64,000 nt of DNA, taken from positions 18,446 through 82,445 of IMG/VR virus record IMGVR_UViG_3300048838_001252; one strand, written 5' to 3'. The DNA comes from a virus. Below, one piece after another: positions 5,214 through 59,487 of this stretch; position 1 is the first letter of the stretch; each line of letters starts with the position of its first letter. Below the pieces are notes generated by a model. The model did no database searches, was not told where the DNA came from, and worked only from the letters and a program-made list of their open reading frames with translations. The position numbers and the translations under genes were made by a program.

Positions 5214-7322
5214 ATGAATAGGTCACAACGAATTTATTTGGATGTTAATTCTCTTGATGTAGATAATCACATTAAAATAAAACTCGAACAAGAAACAGAC
5301 AGTCTTGAATTTTTAAGCATGAGCATCGATACCAAAGATGTTTATCAGGATTTTAATGCTGATTATGGTGTTTTGGTGGGTAGAGTTATAGCAAATGGTG
5401 GTATAGGTATCCCAAATGCCAAAATAAGCATTTTTATGCCCCTTACAGACGATGATGCTGAGAATGGTGAGATATACAGTATATACCCCTATAAGACTCC
5501 CAGAGACAAGAATATAGAGGGAAAACGATATAATTTATTACCAAGGGTAGGTAAAAAAAATCCTGCCACACAAGAAGTAAAACCTAAACAACCATTTGGC
5601 AGTTTTCCAATCAAAGAAGAAATTGTAACAAATGAACCGTTTTTAAATGTTTATAAAAAATACTATAAATATACTGCTACCACAAATGATGCTGGTGATT
5701 ACATGATATTCGGTGTTCCAATTGGTACACAAACTGTTCACCTTAGTGTTGATATTACCGATATTGGTAAATATAGCATGACACCAGCAGCTATGGTAAC
5801 AAACTTAGGCTATTCACCAAACCTATTTACTGATGGTGGCAGTAAAATTAAACCAAGTAATGACTTAGGTGACCTACCACACATTGAAACACAAGAAATT
5901 AGTGTTGATATCATACCGTTTTGGGGTGATGTTGAAAATTTTGAAATAGGTATTACTCGTCAGGATTTCAGAATTAGGTCAGTATTATCAAATACATTTA
6001 CAATTTTTGGTAGTATTTTCACAGATGGTGATAATTCAATGTGGGGTGCTAATAATGAAGATGGTAGAACAATTAGAGAGTTATATAAACTTAGAAGTAA
6101 TACCAGTGAAAATAAAGGAATGGTATCGAAAAGAATCGGAATTGTTACAGAAAAAATTTATTACTATCCCGCTTCCATAAATGATAGTGAAATAAGTACT
6201 GCCGACCCTAAAACAGATATGTTACTTTTAGACCCAACGCAATATTCTGCATATAAAAGAGATGGTGATTTTGTTTTTATTATTAATTGTAATAGAGGTA
6301 GGGTTATTACTGATGAATTTGGTAATGAAACACCTGTAGATGAAAATTCTTCCACAGGTGTTTATACTAAGTTTAAAGGTTTTATGACATTAGAAGCAAC
6401 TGTTGATGATATACCCATGAATTTCACCGGAGATTTAGGTAGTAGTACCACATTAAGACCAATTAGATATAAATTTAAATTTCCACAATTTGCTTCTGAA
6501 GGTCGAGGACTCAGAAGAGACAACCGTGACTCACAATCACAAGCAGATGTTCAAACATGGAGAAAACAACACTATACATTTTCTGGCGGTGGTTTTTATA
6601 GTGTTTCAAGATTTCATGGTGTTGTATATAATGCGCATAATAATGAAAACGAAAATAATGATTTTGATGACCACACAAATAATGCGTTTTCAAACAGGGA
6701 CGCAATAAATGACCCAAAGGATAGAGATACAAATTGGGATGTTGGAATTATTCAAACCAATGATGTTGATGTTACTGGTAACACACAGTATGGAATGGTT
6801 TATAATACAACATATTCAACACAACAACTTTTTGGTGCAAACTGGTTAAATTTTGCAATACATTTACCACAGGTAGCATTTTTATCGAACGGATATTCAT
6901 ATGTAGAAAATTGGCGTTCAAATACCAATTTCACTCATGATTTTAAAAGCACACATTTCTTTGGGGATAATAGTCAGATAATTGCAGGTAATGACTTCAA
7001 CACTAAATTCATGGCACGTTCCGACTTGCACTGGACTGACTTTATTCATGTGCCAAAAGAAGACCTTCCTGAATTAAAGAATATGCCAAAAGGGTTTAAA
7101 GGTACAGGAACAAATGGAAATTCTATACCGGGTTATACACTTAAAGGTAAATATCGTAATGGTAAATATATACCATCGGGTTGGACTGCAGCCTGTCCTT
7201 TAAAGGGTGGAAGATTAAATGGTGATGCCGATGTTAGTACACAAGACCCAAATACCTACTTTTACAAAGGTTTTGATACTGCGGATTGTATTGATTATTT
7301 ATATTTATTAGGACTTGTTTAA
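5214..7322 (+). CDS. Virion structural (baseplate-associated) protein
   Basis: 702 aa ORF, late motif at 5192, GRVIAN..IPNAKIS and TN..GDYMIFGVP.G prealbumin-like segment. Confidence 0.55.
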   Translation: MNRSQRIYLDVNSLDVDNHIKIKLEQETDSLEFLSMSIDTKDVYQDFNADYGVLVGRVIANGGIGIPNAKISIFMPLTDDDAENGEIYSIYPYKTPRDKNIEGKRYNLLPRVGKKNPATQEVKPKQPFGSFPIKEEIVTNEPFLNVYKKYYKYTATTNDAGDYMIFGVPIGTQTVHLSVDITDIGKYSMTPAAMVTNLGYSPNLFTDGGSKIKPSNDLGDLPHIETQEISVDIIPFWGDVENFEIGITRQDFRIRSVLSNTFTIFGSIFTDGDNSMWGANNEDGRTIRELYKLRSNTSENKGMVSKRIGIVTEKIYYYPASINDSEISTADPKTDMLLLDPTQYSAYKRDGDFVFIINCNRGRVITDEFGNETPVDENSSTGVYTKFKGFMTLEATVDDIPMNFTGDLGSSTTLRPIRYKFKFPQFASEGRGLRRDNRDSQSQADVQTWRKQHYTFSGGGFYSVSRFHGVVYNAHNNENENNDFDDHTNNAFSNRDAINDPKDRDTNWDVGIIQTNDVDVTGNTQYGMVYNTTYSTQQLFGANWLNFAIHLPQVAFLSNGYSYVENWRSNTNFTHDFKSTHFFGDNSQIIAGNDFNTKFMARSDLHWTDFIHVPKEDLPELKNMPKGFKGTGTNGNSIPGYTLKGKYRNGKYIPSGWTAACPLKGGRLNGDADVSTQDPNTYFYKGFDTADCIDYLYLLGLV

Positions 7323-18400: not shown

Positions 18401-19884
18401 ATTTTAAACCAACCCCAGAACAAGAAAGAATATTCTTATTCACAAAGAAAAGACCGGAAAATATTTTAATCAAGGCATATGCTGGTGCAGGAAAAACTTC
18501 AACAATCGTTGAAGCCGTAAAATTATTGCCTAAAGACAAATCAATTATGTTTTTGGCATTTAATAAACACATTCAGGAAGAATTAAAAACAAGACTCCCG
18601 GAACACGTTCGTTGTTATACCACTTATGGTCTTGGTACTGCAGCAATCAAAAGAAAATATGGCGATAAAATCAGGTTTGATGAATTCAAGGTTGATAAAA
18701 TCATACAAAAAAAAGCCAAATCTTGGGGATTAGATGATGAGTTTAAAAATGATGAAGCAATTACAAATTATCTTACAAGTATAAAGAAGTTAGTTGATTT
18801 GTGTCGTTTGACATTAACTTTAAAGCCGGAATACATTCCATATATCACCGAAAGATACGATATAAGTATCAACAAACCCAAGGACATAAAGAGAGTACTT
18901 AAAGTATTGGATGAGGTCACAACAGATAGAACCAGTTTTGATTATACTGATATGATTTATCTTCCTGCTGTTGATAATGGTATCTGGATGTTTCCACAGG
19001 ATTATGTTTTTGTTGATGAGGTTCAAGACCTAAACCGTTGTCAAATCAGAATAATTGAAAAGGTACTTAAAAAAGATAAATTATCTGGTAAACTAACTGG
19101 TCGATTAATATGTGTTGGCGATTTCTTTCAGGGAATCTATGGTTTCAATGCTGCCGATGAAAAATCGTTTGAATGGTTTGAGAAGTTTCAAAACACTAAA
19201 GTTCTTCCATTATCAGTATCGTTCAGATGCTCACAGGCAGTAATAAGAAAAGCACAGGAAATTGTGCCGGATATCAAAGCACTTCCAGATGCACCAGAGG
19301 GTTGTGTTAGGGATGGTGATGTTTTAAAGGAGGCACAAAGCGGTGATTTCATTCTATGTAGAACAACAATGCCATTGGTTAAACTATTTTTCGAATTTTT
19401 GGTGCAACATAAAAAGGCAATAATAAAAGGTAGCGATATTGGAATACACTTAATTGAATTAATTGGTAAAATTAACAACATACCAAAACTAAACCAGTTC
19501 TGGGAACAAGAGTTGTCGAATTTTAGAACCGAATTAAAGAAAAGTGGTGTTTTAAACCCAAACGAACATACAGCTTATGTTGCATTAGAAGATAAGGTGA
19601 CTACACTATTGTTTTTGGCTAAACTTGCTGATAGCATTGAGGACTTAAAAAATAAAATAAGAAGCATTTTCACTGATGAAATTCAGGGAATTGTATTAAG
19701 TACCGTTCATAAAATCAAAGGTTTGGAAGCAAACCGAGTATTTATTATCAGACCGGATTTATTGCCAATGAAGGCACAAAAATCTTGGCAACACATACAG
19801 GAGAAAAACCTTGAATATGTTGCATACACAAGGGCAAAACTGGAATTAATTTTTGATAGAACATGGACAGACGAAGAAGAATGA
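18397..19884 (+). CDS. UvrD/Rep-like SF1 helicase
   Basis: AGAGKT, VDEVQD, VGD..Q.IYGF, STVHKIKGLE, YVAYTRAK. Confidence 0.92.
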   Translation: MNFKPTPEQERIFLFTKKRPENILIKAYAGAGKTSTIVEAVKLLPKDKSIMFLAFNKHIQEELKTRLPEHVRCYTTYGLGTAAIKRKYGDKIRFDEFKVDKIIQKKAKSWGLDDEFKNDEAITNYLTSIKKLVDLCRLTLTLKPEYIPYITERYDISINKPKDIKRVLKVLDEVTTDRTSFDYTDMIYLPAVDNGIWMFPQDYVFVDEVQDLNRCQIRIIEKVLKKDKLSGKLTGRLICVGDFFQGIYGFNAADEKSFEWFEKFQNTKVLPLSVSFRCSQAVIRKAQEIVPDIKALPDAPEGCVRDGDVLKEAQSGDFILCRTTMPLVKLFFEFLVQHKKAIIKGSDIGIHLIELIGKINNIPKLNQFWEQELSNFRTELKKSGVLNPNEHTAYVALEDKVTTLLFLAKLADSIEDLKNKIRSIFTDEIQGIVLSTVHKIKGLEANRVFIIRPDLLPMKAQKSWQHIQEKNLEYVAYTRAKLELIFDRTWTDEEE

Positions 19885-46261: not shown

Positions 46262-46417
46262 GAAAGTCATTGCTTAATTTAGAATTAAGTTAGGTCTGAT
46301 AAAGTCAGGAATGATTTTTAAAATTAAATACCACATCGCCCGACAGGGGTTAGGTAAAATTTTAAGAACTTGACTTCAAAATTATAATTGCATCACAGTG
46401 TGGTGCAATTATTTTTT
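46262..46417 (+). ncRNA. Candidate late small RNA
   Basis: Late motif at 46249, no ORF, several hairpins, terminator AATTGCATCAC/GTGGTGCAATT+T-run. Confidence 0.45.
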
Positions 46418-46446
46418 AAAATATTTTTCATTTTTTTTGAAAAAAG

Positions 46447-46477
46447 TTTGTATTTATGATTTTAATGCATATATTTG
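46447..46477 (+). promoter_or_regulatory. Bacteroidota housekeeping promoter for tRNA array 1
   Basis: TTTG-N19-TATATTTG. Confidence 0.8.
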
Positions 46478-46520
46478 CATCGAAGTTTTTAGTTAAACAT
46501 AGTTGTTAGAGTTTTGAGTT

Positions 46521-46595
46521 ATGAAAAATTTAGTGTACATAGTGCCCCAACCGCAACAACATCCACAGGATGGTGAATGGGGAAAGTACGCTTAA
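46521..46595 (+). CDS. Attenuator leader peptide 1, MKNLVYIVPQPQQHPQDGEWGKYA
   Basis: Run CCC CAA CCG CAA CAA CAT CCA CAG; lies between promoter and terminator. Confidence 0.8.
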   Translation: MKNLVYIVPQPQQHPQDGEWGKYA

Positions 46596-46622
46596 ATTTT
46601 TCGTGAAAGTTTAAGGTGAAGT

Positions 46623-46654
46623 AGACCCCATTCTGAAAAGAGTGGGGTTTTTTT
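46623..46654 (+). terminator. Attenuator terminator 1
   Basis: AGACCCCATTCT-gaaa-AGAGTGGGGTTT+T-run; left arm can pair instead with GAATGGGG at 46575-46582. Confidence 0.85.
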
Positions 46655-46703
46655 GTAACATTTTTTTCGTTCTTTCGTATAATGAGTTTTGAAATATATA
46701 AAA

Positions 46704-47135
46704 ATGAATAAGATTTGTACAAAATGTAAGAGTTCTTTGAATATTGATGAATTTCCCATTGTTAATGGAAAAACAAAAAAACGTAGTTCAATGTGTTTGA
46801 CGTGTAAAAGAGAGTATGATAGGGAATATCATAAGAAATATGCCGAAAAACGTAATGAACTAAAAAGAAAAACACAATTAAAGAATAGACTTAGAAATAG
46901 AAAGTTTATTGTTGATTATTTAAAAGAAAATCCGTGCGTTGATTGCGGGGAAAATGATTTTATTGTGCTTGAATTTGACCACAAATACGATAAAAAATTT
47001 AACCTTGCTGACGCAGCCAGACGTGGGTATTCTTTGAAAACAATAAAAAAAGAAATTGAAAAGTGTGATGTTGTTTGTGCCAATTGTCATAGACGCAGAA
47101 CAGCAAAACAATTTAATTATTATATCAGGGTGTGA
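46704..47135 (+). CDS. HNH endonuclease (zinc-binding)
   Basis: C..C, C.DCG, LEFDH, KC.VVCANCH. Confidence 0.85.
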   Translation: MNKICTKCKSSLNIDEFPIVNGKTKKRSSMCLTCKREYDREYHKKYAEKRNELKRKTQLKNRLRNRKFIVDYLKENPCVDCGENDFIVLEFDHKYDKKFNLADAARRGYSLKTIKKEIEKCDVVCANCHRRRTAKQFNYYIRV

Positions 47136-47219
47136 GCGAGAGGTTGAAGCTACTGGTCTTGGAAACCAGTGACGGCACAAAGGCGTTGTCGTCCGTGGGT
47201 TCGAACCCCACCACCCTGA
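47126..47219 (+). tRNA. tRNA-Pro(TGG) with long variable arm (atypical)
   Basis: CAGGGTG/CACCCTG-A acceptor, CTGGT-CTTGGAA-ACCAG, 7-bp variable stem. Confidence 0.7.
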
Positions 47220-47295
47220 CAAACCGCCCCAAACGGTATATAAAATTGTAATCAAGCAGTGCGCATTTAGTGCTAATTACATATTTGGGACACAT

Positions 47296-47371
47296 GGTGA
47301 TTGTAGAGGAATTGGTAGACTCACCTGACTGTGAATCAGGAATCTTGCGGGTTCAAGTCCCGTCTTTCACC
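47296..47371 (+). tRNA. tRNA-His(GTG)
   Basis: CCTGA-CTGTGAA-TCAGG, G-1, C73. Confidence 0.85.
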
Positions 47372-47400
47372 CAAATAGTGTTCATTGAAATATTGTTTTT

Positions 47401-47473
47401 CGGGATGTGGTGTAGTTGGTAACATGCGTGCTTTGGGAGCATGAGACCGTGGGTTCGAGTCCCGCCATCCCGA
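47401..47473 (+). tRNA. tRNA-Pro(TGG)
   Basis: CGGGATG/CATCCCG, CGTGC-TTTGGGA-GCATG. Confidence 0.9.
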
Positions 47474-47475
47474 CT

Positions 47476-47549
47476 GTGTTAGTGGACTGTTGGTTTGTCC
47501 GTCAAGATTGTGACTCTTGTTGACGGGGGTTCGATTCCCCTCTAACACC
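47476..47549 (+). tRNA. tRNA-His(GTG)
   Basis: GTGTTAG/CTAACAC-C, CAAGA-TTGTGAC-TCTTG. Confidence 0.8.
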
Positions 47550-47565
47550 CAAAAATACATGATAT

Positions 47566-47638
47566 TGTCTCATGGTGTAATTGGCAACACGTTTGACTCT
47601 GAATCAAAAGAGTGGGGGTTCGAAACCCTCTGAGACAA
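47566..47638 (+). tRNA. tRNA-Gln(CTG)
   Basis: TGTCTCA/TGAGACA, TTTGA-CTCTGAA-TCAAA. Confidence 0.9.
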
Positions 47639-47643
47639 CAAAT

Positions 47644-47752
47644 GGTCTTCTGGTGGAATTGGAAGACATACCCTTTAAGGGGGCGAAGGTAATAACAGGT
47701 GTTCCAATAGAACAGAATAACTTCATTGCAGGTTCGAATCCTGTGAAGACCA
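47644..47752 (+). ncRNA. tRNA-like RNA with truncated anticodon arm and large insert
   Basis: GGTCTTC/GAAGACC acceptor, normal D and T arms, CCCT-TTAA-GGGG mini hairpin. Confidence 0.55.
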
Positions 47753-47797
47753 CGAATGCCGAAATGCGGAGCAGAAATGCGCCAAATTACGGAATAT

Positions 47798-47878
47798 TAT
47801 CCTCTGGCAGAATGGTTATTGCATCGCCCTTTGAAGGCGACACCGAAAGGTTTGCAGGTTCGAGTCCTGCGGGGATAA
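47798..47878 (+). tRNA. tRNA-Gln(TTG) with variable arm (atypical)
   Basis: TATCCTC/GGGGATA, TCGCC-CTTTGAA-GGCGA, ACC-GAAA-GGT arm. Confidence 0.75.
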
Positions 47879-47924
47879 CAAAAAATTTTGAAAATTCAAT
47901 TTTTTTTCTACCTTTGTAAAAAAT

Positions 47925-47997
47925 TGACCTGTGGTGTAATTGGCAACACGTCAGATTTTGGTTCTGAAGTCTCTGAGTTCGAGTCTCAGCAGGTCAA
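47925..47997 (+). tRNA. tRNA-Gln(TTG)
   Basis: TGACCTG/CAGGTCA, TCAGA-TTTTGGT-TCTGA; TACCTTTG promoter-like site at 47909. Confidence 0.9.
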
Positions 47998-48013
47998 CTA
48001 ATTTTCTTGGAAT

Positions 48014-48241
48014 ATGGATGAATTAGAAATATTACGAAAAGAAAACGAAGATTTAAAAGACAAACTAACCGATTTGACTTTCGAATTGAATTACAATAAA
48101 CAAACGGAGTTAATTGAATTCGTTCGTGAATTATATCAATCATTAGGCAATGTTGGTAAAAATCTTACAAAAAAAGAATTGGTTGAAAATCTGAGAAACT
48201 ATATTAGAGAGTTTACAAAAAATAATAAAATACAATTATGA
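48014..48241 (+). CDS. Hypothetical coiled-coil protein
   Basis: ORF track. Confidence 0.55.
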   Translation: MDELEILRKENEDLKDKLTDLTFELNYNKQTELIEFVRELYQSLGNVGKNLTKKELVENLRNYIREFTKNNKIQL

Positions 48242-48672
48242 GTTACAATTTATTTCTTGACGATGTTCGTATGCCGAAGGATGCCTTCGAATACATGAAA
48301 CAACCAATTTATATTTCGGTTGAATGGATTGTTGTCAGGAATTATTATGCCTTCATCACACTAATTGAGAATAAGGGTGTCCCGGAAATCATATCGTTTG
48401 ACCACGACCTTGCCGATGAGCATTACGATTATCAAGAACAGTTTGGCAACAACGAAATCTACGATGTTATGACCGAAAAAACCGGATATCATTGTGCAAA
48501 GTGGCTTATTGATTACTGTATTGATAATGAAAAGGAACTTCCTGCCGAAATCATCATTCATTCAATGAATCCTGCAGGAAGTATGAACATCAAGTCATTA
48601 TTTAACACCTACATCAAAGTACATGGAAAAAAGCCAATTGATGTTTATGTATTACCTTCTTCCAGAAGATGA
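48238..48672 (+). CDS. Cyclic-phosphate-processing receiver-like domain protein
   Basis: LFLDD.R.P, ISFDHDL, TGY.CAKW, IHSMNP.G. Confidence 0.75.
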   Translation: MSYNLFLDDVRMPKDAFEYMKQPIYISVEWIVVRNYYAFITLIENKGVPEIISFDHDLADEHYDYQEQFGNNEIYDVMTEKTGYHCAKWLIDYCIDNEKELPAEIIIHSMNPAGSMNIKSLFNTYIKVHGKKPIDVYVLPSSRR

Positions 48673-51234: not shown

Positions 51235-51289
51235 AAACACGTTAATTATCAATCATTTATAAAAAAAATAAAAAATAATTTAAAAAAAG

Positions 51290-51320
51290 TTTGGAATTGT
51301 TGTAACATTTTATACCTTTG
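51290..51320 (+). promoter_or_regulatory. Bacteroidota housekeeping promoter for tRNA array 2
   Basis: TTTG-N19-TACCTTTG; overlapping TGTAAC-N17-CGTAT. Confidence 0.75.
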
Positions 51321-51361
51321 TAACGTATTTAGATAAAAACGATTTAATTATAAAAAAGAAA

Positions 51362-51457
51362 ATGAAAAATTTACTCGACATATTAATGGTAGCGGTAGCC
51401 TTGGAAGCAGACCTATTATGGGTGGCTGATGAGGATATGCTATGCGGAGTCGGGTAA
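51362..51457 (+). CDS. Attenuator leader peptide 2, MKNLLDILMVAVALEADLLWVADEDMLCGVG
   Basis: 23 of residues 4-27 are L/D/M/V/A/E/W; last codons carry the antiterminator strand. Confidence 0.8.
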   Translation: MKNLLDILMVAVALEADLLWVADEDMLCGVG

Positions 51458-51493
51458 TAAAAGTTTTTTTAATACCTCCTTTCTTTTAAAAAG

Positions 51494-51531
51494 AAAACCC
51501 GACTCCCCGAAAAAGTCGGGTTTTTTGTTTT
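51494..51531 (+). terminator. Attenuator terminator 2
   Basis: AAAACCCGACT/AGTCGGGTTTT+T-run; competing 10-bp pair GGAGTCGGGT(51446-55)/ACCCGACTCC(51497-506). Confidence 0.88.
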
Positions 51532-51561
51532 GGGGGTGGTTCTTTGACATGTTGGAAATTT

Positions 51562-51636
51562 GGTGCTGTAGTTCAGCTTGGTTAGAATGCCTGCCTGTCA
51601 CGCAGGAGGTCGTGGGTTCGAGTCCCATCAGCACCG
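51562..51636 (+). tRNA. tRNA-Asp(GTC)
   Basis: CCTGC-CTGTCAC-GCAGG, canonical. Confidence 0.92.
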
Positions 51637-51711
51637 CAAATGGTCTTCTCTGGAAGTGCACAACTATTCGTGATATCAAATAGTCTCGAATCCAGAGGTG
51701 ACCGCCACATT

Positions 51712-51789
51712 GGTCTTATGTGCTTGACTGGCGTGCAGGATTTGGGTTGTCGCCCCACAAAAACGAGGGTTCGAATCCCTCTAAGACCG
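51712..51789 (+). tRNA. tRNA-Asp(GTC), divergent
   Basis: GGTCTTA/TAAGACC-G, TGGG-TTGTCGC-CCCA; odd D arm. Confidence 0.6.
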
Positions 51790-51931
51790 CAATGCTTTGC
51801 TGTCGGCTCATACTTAGAGGGTATGGGGTACGAAGATACACGGGTTAGTGTAATAAACACGTCTGCTTAATAACCAGATAACTGTGACATGAAAAAGTCA
51901 TCATCCGTAACAAGTGGCAAAGTATTTCAAC

Positions 51932-52001
51932 GATTCCGTAGTGTAATGGTTAACATCCCGCACTGTCTATGCGGGGAAGGGGTTCGAGTCCCACGGGGTC
52001 G
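51932..52001 (+). tRNA. tRNA-Asp(GTC)
   Basis: CCGCA-CTGTCTA-TGCGG. Confidence 0.7.
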
Positions 52002-52016
52002 GCAAAATTTAAAACA

Positions 52017-52127
52017 ATGAAAAAGAAAGAAACATCTGGAATCTCCAGAAAAAAGGTTGAGTTTAAATTAATTTCAAAGGAAGAACTTCAGAAAAATAGA
52101 AGTAATGCCTACGAATATTTGGTTTAA
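52017..52127 (+). CDS. Small basic peptide (36 aa)
   Basis: MKKKETSGISRKKVEFKLISKEELQKNRSNAYEYLV after A-rich upstream sequence. Confidence 0.35.
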   Translation: MKKKETSGISRKKVEFKLISKEELQKNRSNAYEYLV

Positions 52128-52148
52128 GTCTGGAATTTCCAGACAATC

Positions 52149-52249
52149 TACCGTTTTAGCAGTAAAAAGTGTAATATATGATACTTTTAGTTAACATTTT
52201 AGCCAAAAGTACCGTTTTAACAGTAAAAAGTGCAATATATGATACTTTT
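52149..52249. repeat. Two 40-bp direct repeats, 61-bp period
   Basis: TACCGTTTTA(G/A)CAGTAAAAAGTG(T/C)AATATATGATACTTTT. Confidence 0.8.
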
Positions 52250-52413
52250 GCATGCAAATACATATAATTGCATAAAAACAATTAAATTCATATGCTTTTG
52301 CATATAAAAGATAGTGATGACCGATGTAAAAAACTGCACGAGAAACAGACACGAGTGGGTTAAGAGATGTTTTAATACTCACAAGGGTTGCCAGTACCCA
52401 AGGTCATCCAAAT

Positions 52414-52488
52414 GCTGCGGTTGGCAAATTAGGTTAAGCCACCAGACCTTCAATCTGGTCATTGCGGGTTCGATTCCCGTCCGCAGTA
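52414..52488 (+). tRNA. tRNA-Glu(TTC), C33 variant
   Basis: CCAGA-CCTTCAA-TCTGG. Confidence 0.7.
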
Positions 52489-52537
52489 CCCTTGGTCGTT
52501 TTCTGTACTTTCTCGTATTTATGGGAAAGTATAGATT

Positions 52538-53200
52538 ATGGCAAGAAAAGAAAAGAAGTATCATTTAATCTACAAGACCACGAATATCTTAACTGGTCGA
52601 TATTATTATGGAATGCATAGCACCGATAATCTCGATGATGGTTATTTGGGGTCAGGTAAGAGATTAAAATACTCAATTAATAAATATGGCAAGGATGTTC
52701 ATAAACGAGAAATTGTTGAATTTTGTTCAAATCGTGAATTATTGAATAACAAAGAAAAAGAAGTTATCACCCTCAATGAAATAGGAAAAAAAGATTGTAT
52801 GAATTTAATTGTTGGTGGTCAAGGTGGTGATGGTGGATTAAGCAATGTATCACCAGAAAAAATTCAAAACATTCGCAAAGGTGCATCAGATTTCATGAAC
52901 AGACTATGGAAAGACCCAAAATTTATTGAAGGTCATAAACAAAGGACAATAGAGATTTTAAAGAAAAGACATCAAAGGGGTGAGGTTAAATATGATACGT
53001 TCACAGGAAAAAAACATAGTGAGGAAACTAAGATAAAAATGAGTAATCTTAAAAGAGGAAAAGGTGTTGGTAATAATAATTCACAATTTGGTACTTGTTG
53101 GATAACAAAAAACGGTAATGATAAAAAAATAAAAAAAGAATACCTTCAAGAATATCTTTCTGAAGGTTGGATTAAGGGTAGATATGTTCGGGTCTTCTAA
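52538..53200 (+). CDS. GIY-YIG (Seg-like) homing endonuclease
   Basis: IYKTTN...YYYGMHS....DGYLGSG; GKKHSEETK; late motif at 52515. Confidence 0.85.
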   Translation: MARKEKKYHLIYKTTNILTGRYYYGMHSTDNLDDGYLGSGKRLKYSINKYGKDVHKREIVEFCSNRELLNNKEKEVITLNEIGKKDCMNLIVGGQGGDGGLSNVSPEKIQNIRKGASDFMNRLWKDPKFIEGHKQRTIEILKKRHQRGEVKYDTFTGKKHSEETKIKMSNLKRGKGVGNNNSQFGTCWITKNGNDKKIKKEYLQEYLSEGWIKGRYVRVF

Positions 53201-53257
53201 CGGTCAGGAATCTGGGTTTTCATCCCAGCAATCGGGGTTCGATTCCCCGTCCGAATA
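53186..53257 (+). tRNA. tRNA-Glu(TTC)
   Basis: CTGGG-TTTTCAT-CCCAG; overlaps endonuclease stop codon. Confidence 0.85.
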
Positions 53258-53267
53258 CAAATCAATC

Positions 53268-53341
53268 GCTTCCTTAACTCAGTCCGGGAGAGTGTTTGCT
53301 CGACATGCAAAAAGTCGTAGGTTCAAATCCTACAGGAAGTA
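53268..53341 (+). tRNA. tRNA-Val(GAC), C33 variant
   Basis: TTTGC-TCGACAT-GCAAA. Confidence 0.8.
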
Positions 53342-53463
53342 CAAAAAATGCCGTAAACTTGGGATAACATTCTCTTAAAAGGAAACCGGAGTAGCGAATA
53401 GCTTAAAGCGAAGGGGTTTCATAGTGAGCGGTAACAGCGAAAAGTTAGCCACTTAGTAGTTGT

Positions 53464-53532
53464 TGGGTGATAGTGTAGTGGTAGCACGCCCGTGTGAAAA
53501 CGGGTAGGTCGGGTTCGAGTCCCAACACCCCT
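53464..53532 (+). pseudogene. Degenerate tRNA (anticodon uncertain)
   Basis: D and T arms present; CCCGT-GTGAAA-ACGGG 6-nt loop; weak acceptor. Confidence 0.5.
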
Positions 53533-53536
53533 TAAT

Positions 53537-53611
53537 GCTTCCTTAACTCAGTTGGTTCAGAGTGCCACCCTTACAAGGTGGAAGTCGTAGGTTCGACCCC
53601 TACAGGAAGCA
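53537..53611 (+). tRNA. tRNA-Val(TAC)
   Basis: CCACC-CTTACAA-GGTGG. Confidence 0.9.
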
Positions 53612-53619
53612 CAACTAAT

Positions 53620-53700
53620 TGCAATGGTTCTTAACGGGTTCGATTCCCGCTCGTCAGAAGTAATTACCTGATGGGATGGTGTGAAATGGTACGACACAAA
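53620..53700 (+). ncRNA. Circularly permuted tRNA-like RNA (Y-RNA/YrlA-like topology)
   Basis: T arm, then loop-closed acceptor-like stem, then D arm. Confidence 0.5.
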
Positions 53701-53701
53701 T

Positions 53702-53776
53702 AGTCCCTTAGTTTAGTTGGTAAAAACGTCTGGCTTACATCCAGAAGATGCACTGGTTCGAATCCAGTAGGGACTA
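53702..53776 (+). tRNA. tRNA-Val(TAC)
   Basis: TCTGG-CTTACAT-CCAGA. Confidence 0.88.
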
Positions 53777-53788
53777 CAAAATAAATTT

Positions 53789-53870
53789 CTCGCAGTGTTG
53801 TAACTGGTAGCCAAGCTGGTCTAAGAAGCCAGTGTCGAAAGACGTGTGGGTTCGACTCCCACCTGCGAGA
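53789..53870 (+). tRNA. tRNA-Leu(AAG)
   Basis: CTGGT-CTAAGAA-GCCAG, GTC-GAAA-GAC variable arm, A73. Confidence 0.8.
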
Positions 53871-53876
53871 CGATAT

Positions 53877-53950
53877 GCGGACGTGCCGGAACTGGCATAC
53901 GGGTTAGTCTTAGAAACTAAATTTTGTGGGTTCGATTCCCACCGTCCGTA
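53877..53950 (+). tRNA. tRNA-Leu(TAG), short variable loop
   Basis: TTAGT-CTTAGAA-ACTAA. Confidence 0.85.
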
Positions 53951-54182
53951 CAAAGATGTTAATAAATAGTGTTGAAGGGCAGTAAGAGTGGTAATACGAC
54001 AAGTCCTAAGAACCACCACCAGTTTATTAACATTGAGAGAGGCGCATGACAGACTCAAGCAGGGGTGACTGCGTAGCCTGTACCGAGTGTTCTTAAAAGT
54101 GAAGGAGTAATACCTTCAAACACATTATTTCGAACTGCAAAGGGGTAATGGTTGAACTACTAATAAGGTACTACTCTCATTT

Positions 54183-54256
54183 GGGGTCGTGGCAAAATTG
54201 GCTAATGCACCTGCCTTGCACGCAGGGGATTGAGGGTTCGAGTCCCTTCGACTCCA
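54183..54256 (+). tRNA. tRNA-Ala(TGC)
   Basis: G3:U70, CCTGC-CTTGCAC-GCAGG. Confidence 0.92.
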
Positions 54257-54345
54257 CAAAAATGAAAGTGAATGGCACACTACCATTTAATGATTACCGA
54301 CAAGTTGAAAGAGTCTTGGGTTATAACAGCTTTCATTTTTACCAC

Positions 54346-54418
54346 GGGGCAGTGGTGACAAAGGCTAACACGATAGGTTTGCAACCTTTAGATACGGGTT
54401 CGATTCCCGTCTGCTCCA
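54346..54418 (+). tRNA. tRNA-Ala(TGC)
   Basis: G3:U70, AGG-TTTGCAA-CCT. Confidence 0.82.
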
Positions 54419-54498
54419 CAAAACTTGACAGACCCCCAAACTGTACATCGAAGTGGCGGTTTTAATACCCATGAAATGGCATGGAGTCAAGTTCTTTT

Positions 54499-54571
54499 GC
54501 CCCGTTGACGTAACTGGCAACCGTATCAGGCTTAAAATCTGAGTTTCTCAGTTCGAATCTGAGGCGGGGTA
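54499..54571 (+). tRNA. tRNA-Leu(TAA), short variable loop
   Basis: TCAGG-CTTAAAA-TCTGA. Confidence 0.82.
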
Positions 54572-54662
54572 CAAATTACCGGAAATTGCCGGATAGTAAT
54601 TAAGTACATCTGATTATCAATTAATTATGATTTTATTTTTTGCCGGATATTACCGGATATAC

Positions 54663-54735
54663 ACGTCCGTAGTTCAGTTGGTAGAATAGTGGTCTCCAAA
54701 ACCGAAGGTCGGGAGTTCGAGTCTCTCCGGGCGTG
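54663..54735 (+). tRNA. tRNA-Trp(CCA)
   Basis: GGT-CTCCAAA-ACC, G73. Confidence 0.88.
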
Positions 54736-54741
54736 CAATAT

Positions 54742-54813
54742 GTGTCTGTCATCTAATGGCTAAGATATCGGCTTCCAACCCCGATGATGAGGGTTCGACT
54801 CCTTCCAGACATG
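54742..54813 (+). tRNA. tRNA-Trp(CCA), divergent
   Basis: TCGGC-TTCCAAC-CCCGA with C:C at 31:39, G73. Confidence 0.65.
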
Positions 54814-55034
54814 CAAATTCGAAATGAAGTGGTGGTAAAAATCGCAGGTGTGTGTCAGACTCACTGTTCAAGTCCAAATTGAATACGAGACCACTGAGGG
54901 CAGAAGTGTACCCAAGAGCAATATCAGTTACTGGCACGACACCGCTTCAGAAATCCAGATAATTTTGTAACATTCCTTGTTTTTCTTCGTATAAATATCT
55001 ATTTTAGCGCAAGTATTTATGGTAAAATAAAACT

Positions 55035-56984: not shown

Positions 56985-57195
56985 TTTCGAAAATCATTAA
57001 TAATTAATAATATAATGGAAAAGCACGAAGAAATTTTAAAAGAATTGGAACGGAAAAGAAAGGCAAATAATCGACATTGTGAATTAAATGATTGTCCTGC
57101 AACACCATATATGGAAGGTGCAAATCGTGTTCTCGATGAAATGATTGAATTTGTTAAATGTTTAACAAATAAATGAATAAGTTCTTTAAAATAAT

Positions 57196-57559
57196 GGGGC
57201 AGACTGGTTTTGACTTCATGTCAGACTTGGTAATGTAAGCAAGTCGTAGTTGAATCGGACTACGTTAAAAAGGTTCAAAACAACAAATGCAGAGGATATA
57301 ATGTCCATTCCAACGTCTCTTACAAGAGGCAAAAGCGTTTTTGCGAGAAATACTGAACTCGCATTTGCTGCGTAGGAACAATAAAACAGTAAAAACAACG
57401 GGTAGTCATCCTGAGTTGATTTGTTCTCAAGGATGTGGCGTTGAAAAATAGAAAACTGAAAAAATAAAATATTTTGCTGGTTTAGAAAAACCGGATAAAC
57501 TTGTAGAAAACTTATTAATCACATGAAACACAGGGGTTCGACTCCCCTCTGCTCCACCA
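57196..57559 (+). ncRNA. ssrA: tmRNA
   Basis: GGGGCAG...TTGAC 5' end, GGTTCGACTCC...CTGCTCCACCA 3' end with G3:U70, tag ORF 57289-57375 ending LAFAA. Confidence 0.92.
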
Positions 57560-57577
57560 ATATTGTAAGTTAAATAA

Positions 57578-58012
57578 TTGATTATGAAACCTGATTACGA
57601 AGGAATGTTGAAAAAAATGGATGAATGGGTAGAATCTGATGATGGTAAAGCCTATTTTGAGAATCTTAGAAAGAAAAATGAGATTCAAGAAGGTCGTTAT
57701 AGACGTTTTGAAAAATGGTTAGAGCAAAATGATTTTGATACGTTAATATATAAATTGATTTATGAACACGGAGAAGAATGGCGAGAAAAGTGTTGGCATA
57801 ATGGCTGTGAAGTTTATCCAAATAATAAACTACAATTTATAATTGATTATGTTTTCGATAACTATGCACCCATTAGTGTCCCACAACTTGAAAATATGTT
57901 CACCACAGATATTAGATTTTTTAAAGGATATTATTTCAGAATAATGCACGGACAAGGTTCTGTATTTGATTTATATAATGGAGATGATTTTCAACACCTG
58001 TTAAGCGCATGA
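57578..58012 (+). CDS. Hypothetical protein
   Basis: ORF track; MHGQGS motif. Confidence 0.6.
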   Translation: MIMKPDYEGMLKKMDEWVESDDGKAYFENLRKKNEIQEGRYRRFEKWLEQNDFDTLIYKLIYEHGEEWREKCWHNGCEVYPNNKLQFIIDYVFDNYAPISVPQLENMFTTDIRFFKGYYFRIMHGQGSVFDLYNGDDFQHLLSA

Positions 58013-58320
58013 CAACATACAATAAATTAGTACGGGATAAAATAGTTAAAATATTAAAGAAATCCAGCATTGGTTATAAGTACCATATCGCTAAAGATGA
58101 TACAGAATTTCTCGAAAAACTATATGAAAAACTTCAGGAAGAAATACAAGAATTTCGTGAAAAACCAAGTCTTGAAGAATTTGCAGATATACTGCAAGTA
58201 CTGGAAGCCATTGCAAAATTCAACGAGTTTGATTTAAATAAAATTAAAGAAGCAAAAGCAAATAAACTTCATAACAAAGGCGGTTTCAATAATAGAATTA
58301 TTTTGGAAGAAACGAAATAA
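58009..58320 (+). CDS. MazG-superfamily (PRA-PH-like) pyrophosphohydrolase
   Basis: YNKLVRDKI, KL.EE..EF, EEFADI..V, K...KGGF. Confidence 0.8.
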   Translation: MTTYNKLVRDKIVKILKKSSIGYKYHIAKDDTEFLEKLYEKLQEEIQEFREKPSLEEFADILQVLEAIAKFNEFDLNKIKEAKANKLHNKGGFNNRIILEETK

Positions 58321-58350
58321 TAACTATCTTTGTTCTGTGTTTTTTGAAAT

Positions 58351-58436
58351 GGCGGGATGTCGTAATTGGTAGCCGAGACAGACTTAAAATCTGTTGAACC
58401 TTTGTGTTCGTGTGGGTTCGAGTCCCATTCCCGCTA
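58351..58436 (+). tRNA. tRNA-Leu(TAA)
   Basis: ACAGA-CTTAAAA-TCTGT with long variable arm; promoter TTTG-N19-TATCTTTG upstream. Confidence 0.9.
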
Positions 58437-58444
58437 CTAAACAT

Positions 58445-58534
58445 TTGGTGGCATTGCTACAAATTAACAAAGGCGGGTTTGGTTTCCCAACATCGGTGAA
58501 AATCGGTAACATGAGTTCGAGTCTCACCACCGAA
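58445..58534 (+). pseudogene. Degenerate tRNA-like element
   Basis: TTGGTGG/CCACCGA acceptor and TGAG-TTCGAGT-CTCA T arm; anticodon arm unclear. Confidence 0.4.
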
Positions 58535-58821
58535 TGTTTTTAAATAAAAATGATATGAAAGAAATTAAAAAAGCAATACGGAATGAAATTCGTAAGGATT
58601 GTCGTGAGGAAGCTAAGAAAATTCTTGAACTTGGTGACGATAAAGACCGTGGAGATTTTATGAAATATCATGAAGAAGATAAGGGAAACATTTGTTGTCT
58701 TGTTCTGGACTTTGCAAAGAAAAAATTAATTGAAGCCGGAAAATGGGAGTTTAATGAGAATGATTGTTTTAACGACCAGTTTAGATTTTTGGAAGATGAA
58801 GACAGTAAAGAAACTGAATAA
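58534..58821 (+). CDS. Hypothetical protein
   Basis: ORF track. Confidence 0.5.
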   Translation: MFLNKNDMKEIKKAIRNEIRKDCREEAKKILELGDDKDRGDFMKYHEEDKGNICCLVLDFAKKKLIEAGKWEFNENDCFNDQFRFLEDEDSKETE

Positions 58822-58908
58822 TGACAATTGTTGTGGGAAACCACTAAAGGTTGTTGACCCCAGAAGGAAAAAAGATTTGGGGATTAAAAAAGTAATTAAG
58901 AAGAGAAC

Positions 58909-58982
58909 GCCCGGATGACGGAACTGGCATACGTATTAGATTCAAAACCTAAGTTTTGTGGGTTCGACTCCCACTCTGGGCA
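58909..58982 (+). tRNA. tRNA-Leu(CAA), short variable loop
   Basis: TTAG(A)-TTCAAAA-(C)CTAA; body close to Leu(TAG) at 53877. Confidence 0.82.
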
Positions 58983-59069
58983 CAAATTAGTATTTATATA
59001 AAACTGCATTTTATCATGAAAGAAAAATTTAAAGTCCTGTAACGCAACTCAAATGGTGCGTTCAGGAAA

Positions 59070-59372
59070 ATGGGAAACAAAAACATTGTAGATAATACCA
59101 CGAATCGTGGTGAATTCAACCGTGCTTACAAAAGATATCTTGAAGGCAAGGGAAAAATCAGTTGTACTTATTGCCGTTATCATCGTAACGAAAACGGTAA
59201 AGGTAGAGGATATTATGGTGGATATGAAAGAACCAACGGTCATGTCAAAATAATTTATCCAAACTGGAAACTTGTTTCAAGTAACCGTAAGCAATGGATG
59301 AAAAAATCGATGAAAGTCGTTGAAAAAACTGTGCGCTGGTCAGGCGCAAAATACATCGACATTACTTGGTAA
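59070..59372 (+). CDS. Basic hypothetical protein
   Basis: C..C..H, PNWK...NRKQW. Confidence 0.55.
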   Translation: MGNKNIVDNTTNRGEFNRAYKRYLEGKGKISCTYCRYHRNENGKGRGYYGGYERTNGHVKIIYPNWKLVSSNRKQWMKKSMKVVEKTVRWSGAKYIDITW

Positions 59373-59382
59373 TGTCGATTAT

Positions 59383-59455
59383 GGCGGGATAGCTTAGTTG
59401 GTAAAGCACTTGAGTCATAACCAAGAGACCGAGGGTTCGAGTCCCTCTCCCGCTA
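59383..59455 (+). tRNA. tRNA-Met(CAT), elongator (Ile2 not excluded)
   Basis: GGCGGGA/TCCCGCT-A, CTTG(A)-GTCATAA-(C)CAAG. Confidence 0.8.
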
Positions 59456-59460
59456 CAAAT

Positions 59461-59487
59461 AAAAAACCCATCGAATTCGATGGGTTT
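59461..59487. terminator. Terminator closing tRNA array 2
   Basis: AAACCCATCGAA-TTCGATGGGTTT. Confidence 0.7.

Follow-up and report, generated by a model that had tools for sequence, protein, structure and literature searches.

How does a phage that carries its own transfer RNA (tRNA) genes match their expression to the need for them? This question is raised by a locus in a viral DNA stretch of 64,000 nucleotides (i.e., positions 18,446 to 82,445, the final 64 kb of the 82,445-bp IMG/VR virus record IMGVR_UViG_3300048838_001252; referred to as the window, in whose coordinates all features below are given), where a promoter-like motif, a very short open reading frame (ORF) and an intrinsic terminator (together referred to as unit 1) precede a cluster of tRNA genes. 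The record has a CheckV completeness of 27%, and all of its 26 tRNA genes, as well as its transfer-messenger RNA (tmRNA), are situated inside the window. The 20 sequencing runs listed as containing this DNA are all DNA metagenomes, with shares of at most 0.18, and no RNA run was among them. From sequence comparison and folding models, we consider it likely that unit 1 is a codon-matched, multivalent, ribosome-mediated leader-peptide transcription attenuator that gates the phage tRNA block, and that probably senses decoding speed and thereby autoregulates tRNA supply.

All elements of unit 1 are located on the plus strand. The promoter-like motif (TTTG-N19-TAnnTTTG) spans 46447-46477, with its –7 box at 46470-46477, and is of the TTTG/TAnnTTTG type that we take to be the Bacteroidota housekeeping promoter consensus. 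Together with the similarity of the tRNAs to those of Cellulophaga phages, this promoter type suggests that the host is probably a member of the Bacteroidota. In the whole window the motif was found six times versus 5.4 expected, i.e., a count not above chance. The position of the –7 box would place the transcript start around 46483-46486. Leader ORF 1 (46521-46595; 24 codons, with an ATG start and a TAA stop), identified from the sequence and the ORF list, begins 44 nt past the motif, so that a short ORF follows a promoter-like element as in attenuators. Within it, the sequence-only reading from which this analysis departed had pointed to the run CCC CAA CCG CAA CAA CAT CCA CAG at 46545-46568, and these eight contiguous codons (three Pro, four Gln and one His; referred to as the sensor run) were confirmed to be codons 9-16 of this ORF. 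Pro, Gln and His hence make up 8 of its 23 residues, all eight contiguous, versus a background of 0.08 (binomial P = 4e-4).

The 3′ part of the same ORF carries the octamer GAATGGGG (46575-46582, in codons 19-21), which proved to be, as had been claimed, the exact complement of CCCCATTC (46626-46633), the core of the 5′ arm of the intrinsic terminator. This terminator (46623-46654) consists of a 12-pair stem (46623-46650, with the 3′ arm core at 46640-46647) and a run of seven T residues ending at 46654, and folds at –18.1 kcal/mol. An exact 8-nt complement to the terminator arm occurred within the 75-nt frame in 21 of 5000 mononucleotide shuffles. Downstream of the terminator are a gene for an HNH homing endonuclease (46704-47135, plus strand; PHROGs phrog_2255, E = 5.8e-32, with nothing found in Pfam at E <= 0.01) and tRNA cluster 1 (47126-47998, plus strand), which encodes, in order, Pro(tgg), His(gtg), Pro(tgg), His(gtg), Gln(ctg), a tRNA-like element, Gln(ttg) and Gln(ttg). 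Besides the tRNA-like element, this cluster contains solely Pro, His and Gln tRNAs, i.e., identities equal to the amino acids of the sensor run, a correspondence that the sequence-only reading had not raised.

The folding behavior of unit 1 was examined for the naked transcript and for transcripts masked by a ribosome. The naked RNA reached a minimum free energy of –55.1 kcal/mol (z = –6.0; none of 200 shuffles folded as well), in a structure composed of a long protector hairpin and the terminator, without the antiterminator. The protector (or anti-antiterminator; 46519-46606) folded alone at –32.9 kcal/mol, with the start-codon region (46519-46538) pairing with the stop-codon region (46586-46606), and 46545-46549 pairing with 46578-46582. 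The latter pairing is the protector that had been proposed for the CCCCA at the beginning of the sensor run, which was thus recovered in the minimum free energy fold as the inner part of a far larger hairpin. The antiterminator domain (46575-46633) folded at –20.1 kcal/mol alone and includes a hairpin containing the stop codon (46587-46618), for which the RNAalifold consensus predicted the same structure, with some pairs altered on both sides.

Ribosome-masked folding was performed on nascent RNA up to 46639, using footprints from P–15 to P+11, +13, +15 or +17. The 8-bp antiterminator appeared in the best fold whenever the A site was on a codon no later than 14-15, and was absent with the A site anywhere from codon 16 to the stop codon, a result on which the four footprint sizes agreed. 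A stall at the last codon of the sensor run (CAG, 46566) would therefore already be non-permissive in this model, so that the earlier proposal (i.e., a ribosome stalled in the run leaves the antiterminator strand free, while one reaching the stop codon masks it) was borne out through codon 14-15 and at the stop codon, but not at codon 16. All four elements that had been put forward (the sensor codons, the antiterminator, the protector and the terminator) were present in the right geometry, and in these models the antiterminator and terminator exclude each other depending on the position of the ribosome, as in an attenuator.

Put together, these elements suggest the following course of events. 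Transcription would begin about 35 nt ahead of the 24-codon frame, and a ribosome would load onto the leader as RNA polymerase proceeds. With plentiful Pro-, Gln- and His-tRNAs, this ribosome would reach the TAA codon and cover 46575-46582, upon which the terminator would form and transcription would end at the T run (46654). Were any of these tRNAs scarce, uncharged or damaged, the ribosome would stall in codons 9-15 and hold the protector open, leaving 46575-46582 free to pair with 46626-46633 upon its emergence, and the blocked terminator would allow read-through into the HNH gene and the Pro, His and Gln tRNA genes. The new tRNAs would in turn quicken reading of the leader and shut off the block, constituting a direct negative feedback on tRNA supply, and in the absence of any ribosome the protector would sequester the antiterminator strand and cause termination. 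Three parts of this scheme are inferred, namely translation of the leader frame, coupling of polymerase to ribosome in the probable Bacteroidota host, and a response of termination to stalling.

The window contains a putative sister attenuator of the same design (unit 2; 51290-51526, plus strand), with a promoter-like motif of the same type (51290-51320), a leader ORF of 31 codons (51362-51457), a 9-nt antiterminator strand at the 3′ end of the frame (51446-51454) that is complementary to the 5′ arm of the terminator, and the terminator itself (51494-51526), all on the plus strand. After Met1, 22 of the 30 residues of leader 2 are Leu (7), Asp (4), Val (4), Ala (4), Glu (2) or Trp (1). The tRNAs of cluster 2 (51562-54814, plus strand; three Asp, two Glu, three Val, three Leu, two Ala and two Trp, next to one odd tRNA) have exactly these six identities, and the first of them begins 35 nt past terminator 2. 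In masked folds of unit 2, codon 24-26 of 31 marked the end of the permissive zone, and codon 25 holds the last matched residue. After 51526, the next strong plus-strand terminator is located at 59467-59484, directly behind a tRNA-Met gene.

Homologues were sought with a 21-letter pattern, derived from the shared start of both window frames and scanned over IMG/VR, which gave 87 matches at 86 loci, 67 with an open frame of less than 50 codons. Frames of 18-49 codons comprised 28 rows of family 1 (Pro/Gln/His, as leader 1), 17 of family 2 (as leader 2) and 10 others. In family 1, 27 of the 28 rows have downstream tRNAs, always with tRNA-Pro first and then His and Gln, and at the 28th locus only 131 nt follow the frame; in family 2, all 17 rows precede Asp, Glu, Val, Leu, Ala and Trp tRNAs. 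Removal of identical sequences left 25 units in family 1 (alignment A1) and 15 in family 2 (alignment A2), the window included. Among deposited phage records (50,697 searched), blastn of 46440-46660 found no match at E <= 0.01, and a 1.8-kb query matched only tRNA and HNH pieces.

The 24 further distinct family-1 units have leaders of 22-27 codons, and length differences in both alignments are multiples of 3 nt, with the exception of a single locus (L008, +1 nt). The promoter-ORF layout of unit 1 is kept in the 25 distinct units, with the promoter-like motif occurring within 110 nt upstream in 22 of the 25 family-1 and 11 of the 15 family-2 units. The intrinsic terminator is conserved between the leader and the presumably regulated genes in all 25 family-1 units. 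Moreover, the first tRNA begins no more than 45 nt past the T run in 13 of 23 family-1 units and no more than 40 nt past it in 10 of 14 family-2 units, leaving no room in those units for a separate full promoter, and family-1 units without an HNH-type insert have their first tRNA beginning close behind the T run.

Further units were found without the 21-letter pattern, by scanning the tRNA regions of three records reached via the above loci (G001, G002 and G003) and of the cultured Cellulophaga phage phi4:1 (NC_021788, locus L088). G003 (complete, 362,763 bp) carries four leader units, including both families of the window, a 30-codon Lys/Tyr-rich leader ahead of Lys, Lys, Tyr, Lys and Tyr tRNAs, and a 44-codon leader rich in Thr, Cys, Asn, Ile, Ser, Phe, Gly and Arg that precedes exactly those tRNAs; jointly, its four blocks span all 20 amino acids. 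In G001 (372,283 bp), a Leu/Cys leader precedes Leu and Cys tRNAs, a Lys-rich leader precedes four Lys tRNAs, and a Gly/Tyr/Pro/Ala/Asp/Met leader precedes tRNAs of those identities. Phage phi4:1 has two leader-terminator units (5565-5686 and 6525-6660) with identical promoters, one located before Pro, Glu, Gln, His, Leu, Leu and Arg tRNAs with a frame written in those amino acids, and the other before Ala, Lys, Ile, Gly, Met, Asp, Thr, Val, Arg, Met and Tyr tRNAs with a frame that likewise matches. Its second leader lies within the annotated hypothetical gene gp075, and gp076, a small annotated gene before Ser, Trp and Phe tRNAs, showed no clear promoter or match. In masked folds of unit A of phi4:1, the permissive zone ended at codon 14 of 22 and the matched run spans codons 4-14, so that in three independent sequences (unit 1, unit 2 and phi4:1 unit A) the matched codons end where stalls cease to be productive.

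The correspondence between leader codons and downstream tRNAs was quantified for 10 units from four phage lineages, with frames taken by coordinate, tRNA sets from ARAGORN, and 53 long ORFs of the window contig as background. This set leaves aside the G003 copies of families 1 and 2 (being homologues of the window units), unit b of L040/G002 and L044 (in both of which a contig end truncates the tRNA set), L059 (not located in the G001 stretches), G001 19341 and 9642 (terminators with a short ORF but no tRNAs following), and G001 4131 (a unit before a lone suppressor-like tRNA). All 10 leaders were enriched for their own tRNA set (binomial P from 1e-5 to 0.1), with a mean enrichment of 2.51 on the diagonal versus 0.91 off the diagonal, and none of 20,000 permutations of sets among leaders reached the observed sum. 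As a frame control, matching residues numbered 168/280 in the open frame versus 77/280 and 88/280 in the other two frames, and the open frame was best in 10 of 10 units, indicating that the match is a property of the codons and not of base composition. The enrichment and permutation results and this frame control together led us to reject chance composition as an explanation.

The type of constraint acting on the leader was read from 16 distinct 24-codon frames of family 1. At codons 9 and 11-15 the amino acid was kept in 16/16 frames, and at codon 10 in 15/16, while synonymous changes occur in the third positions of codons 9-13 (four different Pro codons at codon 9, three at codon 11, and either Gln codon at codons 10, 12 and 13). 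Codons 17-18 are nearly free, no position of codons 19 and 20 differs among the 16 frames, and codon 21 is identical in 15/16. This combination of synonymous change in the run and nucleotide-fixed codons 19-21 shows that the run is constrained as code and the antiterminator strand as RNA. The antiterminator helix was paired in 197 of 200 cells of A1 (98.5%, over 25 distinct homologues) versus at most 64% for slid controls, so that a lack of conservation of this pairing, which the sequence-only reading had named as fatal to its proposal, was not seen. The A1 protector was paired in 75.6% of 738 cells and showed a covariation of 0.083 versus 0.066 in shuffles (0/500 reaching the observed value) and at most 0.044 in slid controls, and RNAalifold on A1 recovered the terminator and the stop-codon hairpin.

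For family 2, the A2 antiterminator helix was paired in 87.1% of 140 cells, with three pairs changing on both sides (8 cells), a covariation of 0.083 versus 0.040 in shuffles (1/500 reaching the observed value), and four standard pair types at the pair adjoining the invariant core. More generally, toward the 3′ end of the frame each sequence family has a separate stretch complementary to the arm of the terminator that follows it: the exact matches to the own arm measured 8, 8, 6, 8, 7 and 6 nt (with, in the same order, 21, 35, 459, 24, 109 and 1244 of 5000 shuffles being as good), versus mostly 4 and maximally 6 nt to unrelated arms. The exact match of phi4:1 unit A is 4 nt (4091/5000 shuffles as good), its pairing using G-U pairs, and its masked fold shows the alternative pairing. 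L059 and phi4:1 unit B, whose terminator stems are bulged or mismatched, were kept outside this comparison.

A number of observations weigh against unit 1 acting as an attenuator in this way. At equilibrium, the terminator won in the full-length RNA under every ribosome mask, so that the switch, like the classical ones, would have to be kinetic and would need a polymerase pause. Leader 1 taken alone offers a modest statistic (8/23), the own tRNA set was the best column in just 6 of the 10 rows, and broad leaders discriminate little (G002_a was 1.49-fold over background, and phi41_B had P = 0.1). The antiterminator helix of family 1 is invariant and hence without covariation of its own, and the shared first seven codons of the homologues carry no weight, being conserved by construction of the search pattern. 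Finally, in the window the HNH insert separates terminator 1 from the first tRNA by 471 nt, a sigma-70-like match is situated just past the terminator (46655-46683), and a promoter-like motif (TTTG-N17-21-TAnnTTTG) at 47887-47916 lies directly ahead of the last tRNA-Gln (47925). Through this HNH gap and these promoter-like sites, part of cluster 1 may escape attenuator control.

Among other explanations, the same hardware might respond to amino-acid starvation, as in classical attenuators, instead of to tRNA abundance or integrity. The architecture is indeed equal to that of amino-acid operon attenuators, and a stalled ribosome cannot distinguish a missing from an uncharged tRNA; the regulated genes are tRNAs, however, extra copies of which would not relieve a lack of amino acids and would make the response futile, and a single leader reports up to 13 amino acids, which suits a tRNA block and not a pathway. 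We therefore regard starvation as an improbable signal. Slightly less credible still is an RNA element that is not translated (a small RNA, or a T-box-like leader bound by a protein or by tRNA), whose C/A-rich run would serve as a spacer or binding site. Its appeal lies in the putative character of leader translation, in the lack of a Shine-Dalgarno sequence, in the C/A-richness shared by Pro, Gln and His codons (so that the run could be a composition motif), and in the strong structure of the whole transcript (z = –6.0). Nevertheless, the tRNA match is found in the open frame alone (168/280 versus 77/280 and 88/280), changes in the run are synonymous and indels keep the frame, leaders of very different composition match very different tRNA sets, and no Rfam family, T-box included, scored over its threshold (the best being PyrR with 24.4 bits versus 54 and Thr_leader with 23.1 versus 55).

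A final alternative would be that unit 1 is a small gene of its own, complete with terminator, or an insulator that is always active, and that the tRNAs are driven by other promoters, such as the motif GTTCTTTGA. This motif, which looks like the TTTG end of the –7 box, is found behind the terminator in 14 of 15 family-2 and 5 of 25 family-1 units, and promoter-like motifs do occur in or beside the tRNA clusters; GTTCTTTGA, though, lacks the consensus TA and a fixed –33 partner. Such a gene or insulator leaves unexplained the codon-to-tRNA match, the separate antiterminator copies of each family, and the agreement of the permissive zone with the matched run, making this the least probable explanation and, in our estimation, a very remote one.

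Extending the proposed attenuation to whole genomes, these phages might divide the genetic code into a few sensor-plus-tRNA blocks (four in G003), each an autonomous loop in which the ribosome gauges how fast the very codons served by that block are decoded, and which counters host tRNA loss on demand, with the depleted block alone being induced. We put this forward tentatively, as an idea that we hold to be somewhat doubtful as yet. In such a scheme, tRNA loss might be inflicted by host anticodon nucleases, by other tRNA-targeting defences, or by the host shut-off of the phage itself. The two remaining unit types of G003 may have counterparts in the roughly three quarters of the genome that this record lacks. 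Within the window, no leader was found ahead of the third tRNA group (57196-59456), which comprises the tmRNA, two Leu tRNAs and a Met tRNA with ORFs interspersed.

A number of further features were observed around the two units. Upstream of the unit 1 promoter, in a divergent intergenic region, a strong terminator-like hairpin (46384-46412, plus strand; 13 pairs and then a T run) is not preceded by an ORF and may mark the end of a small RNA or an insulator. Within cluster 1, the tRNA-Pro gene at 47126-47220 is 95 nt long with a long extra arm, and shares its first 10 nt with the end of the HNH ORF. The tRNA-like element among the Gln tRNAs (47644-47752) has an Rfam tRNA score of 32.4 bits and was matched by ARAGORN only when introns were allowed, with a UUA (i.e., TAA-reading) anticodon, an 18-nt insert and a long extra arm. 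Suppressor-like tRNA calls were also obtained in relatives (Stop(tta) in G001, and Pyl(cta) in G001 and G003). The element may be a tRNA that reads a stop codon, and both window leaders end in TAA. Directly past cluster 1, the ORF at 48238-48672 encodes a 144-aa protein with a cREC_REC domain (cyclic-phosphate-processing receiver; PF20274, E = 3.4e-22), a domain that is presumably linked to RNA repair systems.

In cluster 2, the odd tRNA (53462-53534) has a 6-nt anticodon loop, was returned as '???' by ARAGORN, and had no Rfam match over the cut-off. The ORF at 52538-53200 (220 aa) is a putative homing endonuclease, with sub-threshold matches to SegE GIY-YIG (21.3 bits versus 25) and NUMOD3 (17.6 versus 20.4). 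Homing-endonuclease genes would thereby sit inside both tRNA blocks (46704-47135 and 52538-53200, the latter on these sub-threshold matches). Between the tRNA-Asp and tRNA-Glu genes, a direct repeat of about 40 nt (52150-52260) was noticed by eye, each copy having a TAnnTTTG-like box at its end. The tmRNA (57196-57559; 107 bits, with a 28-residue tag) is situated downstream of block 2, with no strong plus-strand terminator between 51526 and 59467.

The motif GTTCTTTGA itself occurs at 51539-51547, between terminator 2 and tRNA-Asp, with one-mismatch copies at 57181-57189 (7 nt before the tmRNA) and 58339-58347 (4 nt before tRNA-Leu). Its count in the window was 41 versus 32.6 expected, which is marginal (4 of 100 shuffles reached 41). 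Candidate roles for it are those of a weak –7 box, a signal for processing or a site for a protein. A full match to TTTG-N17-21-TAnnTTTG is also present at 58302-58332, just before the tRNA-Leu gene (58351), and this match and the one at 47887-47916 may be internal promoters that bypass the attenuators.

The purpose of phage tRNA genes has been debated for decades, with codon compensation, the replacement of degraded host tRNAs and an escape from tRNA-cleaving immunity (PMC10264068, PMC11555353) as proposals, and to our knowledge their regulation has hardly been addressed. A full-text literature search returned, in the portions of text it made available, no paper in which a leader peptide or an attenuator precedes tRNA genes, whether in phages or in cells.

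Should the proposed attenuation be real, a phage would measure tRNA sufficiency directly and tune its supply block by block. The idea is directly testable in phi4:1, a cultured phage with a cultured host and two such units. Moreover, the element would be a natural, compact and programmable sensor of decoding speed for chosen codons, and leader composition could serve to predict tRNA operon structure in uncultured phages.

The closest known counterparts are the amino-acid operon attenuators of enterobacteria (i.e., trpL, hisL, pheL and leuL, and the multivalent thrL and ilvL). Like unit 1, these place a short frame containing consecutive regulatory codons close to the promoter, and have four RNA segments that form a protector, an antiterminator and an intrinsic terminator. 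As in the models of unit 1, the position of the ribosome picks the hairpin, and termination is the default without translation. In contrast to these attenuators, the output of the phage element would be tRNA genes instead of biosynthetic enzymes, so that the sensed molecule is itself the product, and the phage leaders report 3 to 13 amino acids each. The phage units further differ in their location on a phage, their TTTG/TAnnTTTG promoter type, their lack of a Shine-Dalgarno sequence, and the absence of sequence or covariance-model similarity. At Rfam gathering thresholds, no leader family was matched by units 1 and 2, the best sub-threshold leader score being the above-mentioned Thr_leader (RF00506) hit, which was on unit 2, with none on unit 1.

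Another relative is the pheST attenuator of E. coli, in which a Phe-rich leader lies ahead of phenylalanyl-tRNA synthetase. It resembles the phage units as a leader-peptide attenuator over a component of the translation apparatus that is read via the aminoacyl-tRNA level, but it regulates a synthetase and not tRNA genes, reports a single amino acid, and is cellular and not viral. T-box riboswitches likewise make a terminator/antiterminator decision that reports tRNA status, although they bind uncharged tRNA directly and without translation, whereas the signal of the phage units depends on the frame. The T-box covariance model had no match in 46400-46700 or 51250-51560, even at E <= 10, and a T-box or other known RNA family was rejected, no Rfam threshold having been reached on either unit. 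Judged by its sequence, the element would act like the leader-peptide attenuators of amino-acid operons yet belongs to no curated family, and, as far as sequence comparison and folding models indicate, a codon-matched attenuator over a phage tRNA block would be a new variant of a known mechanism.

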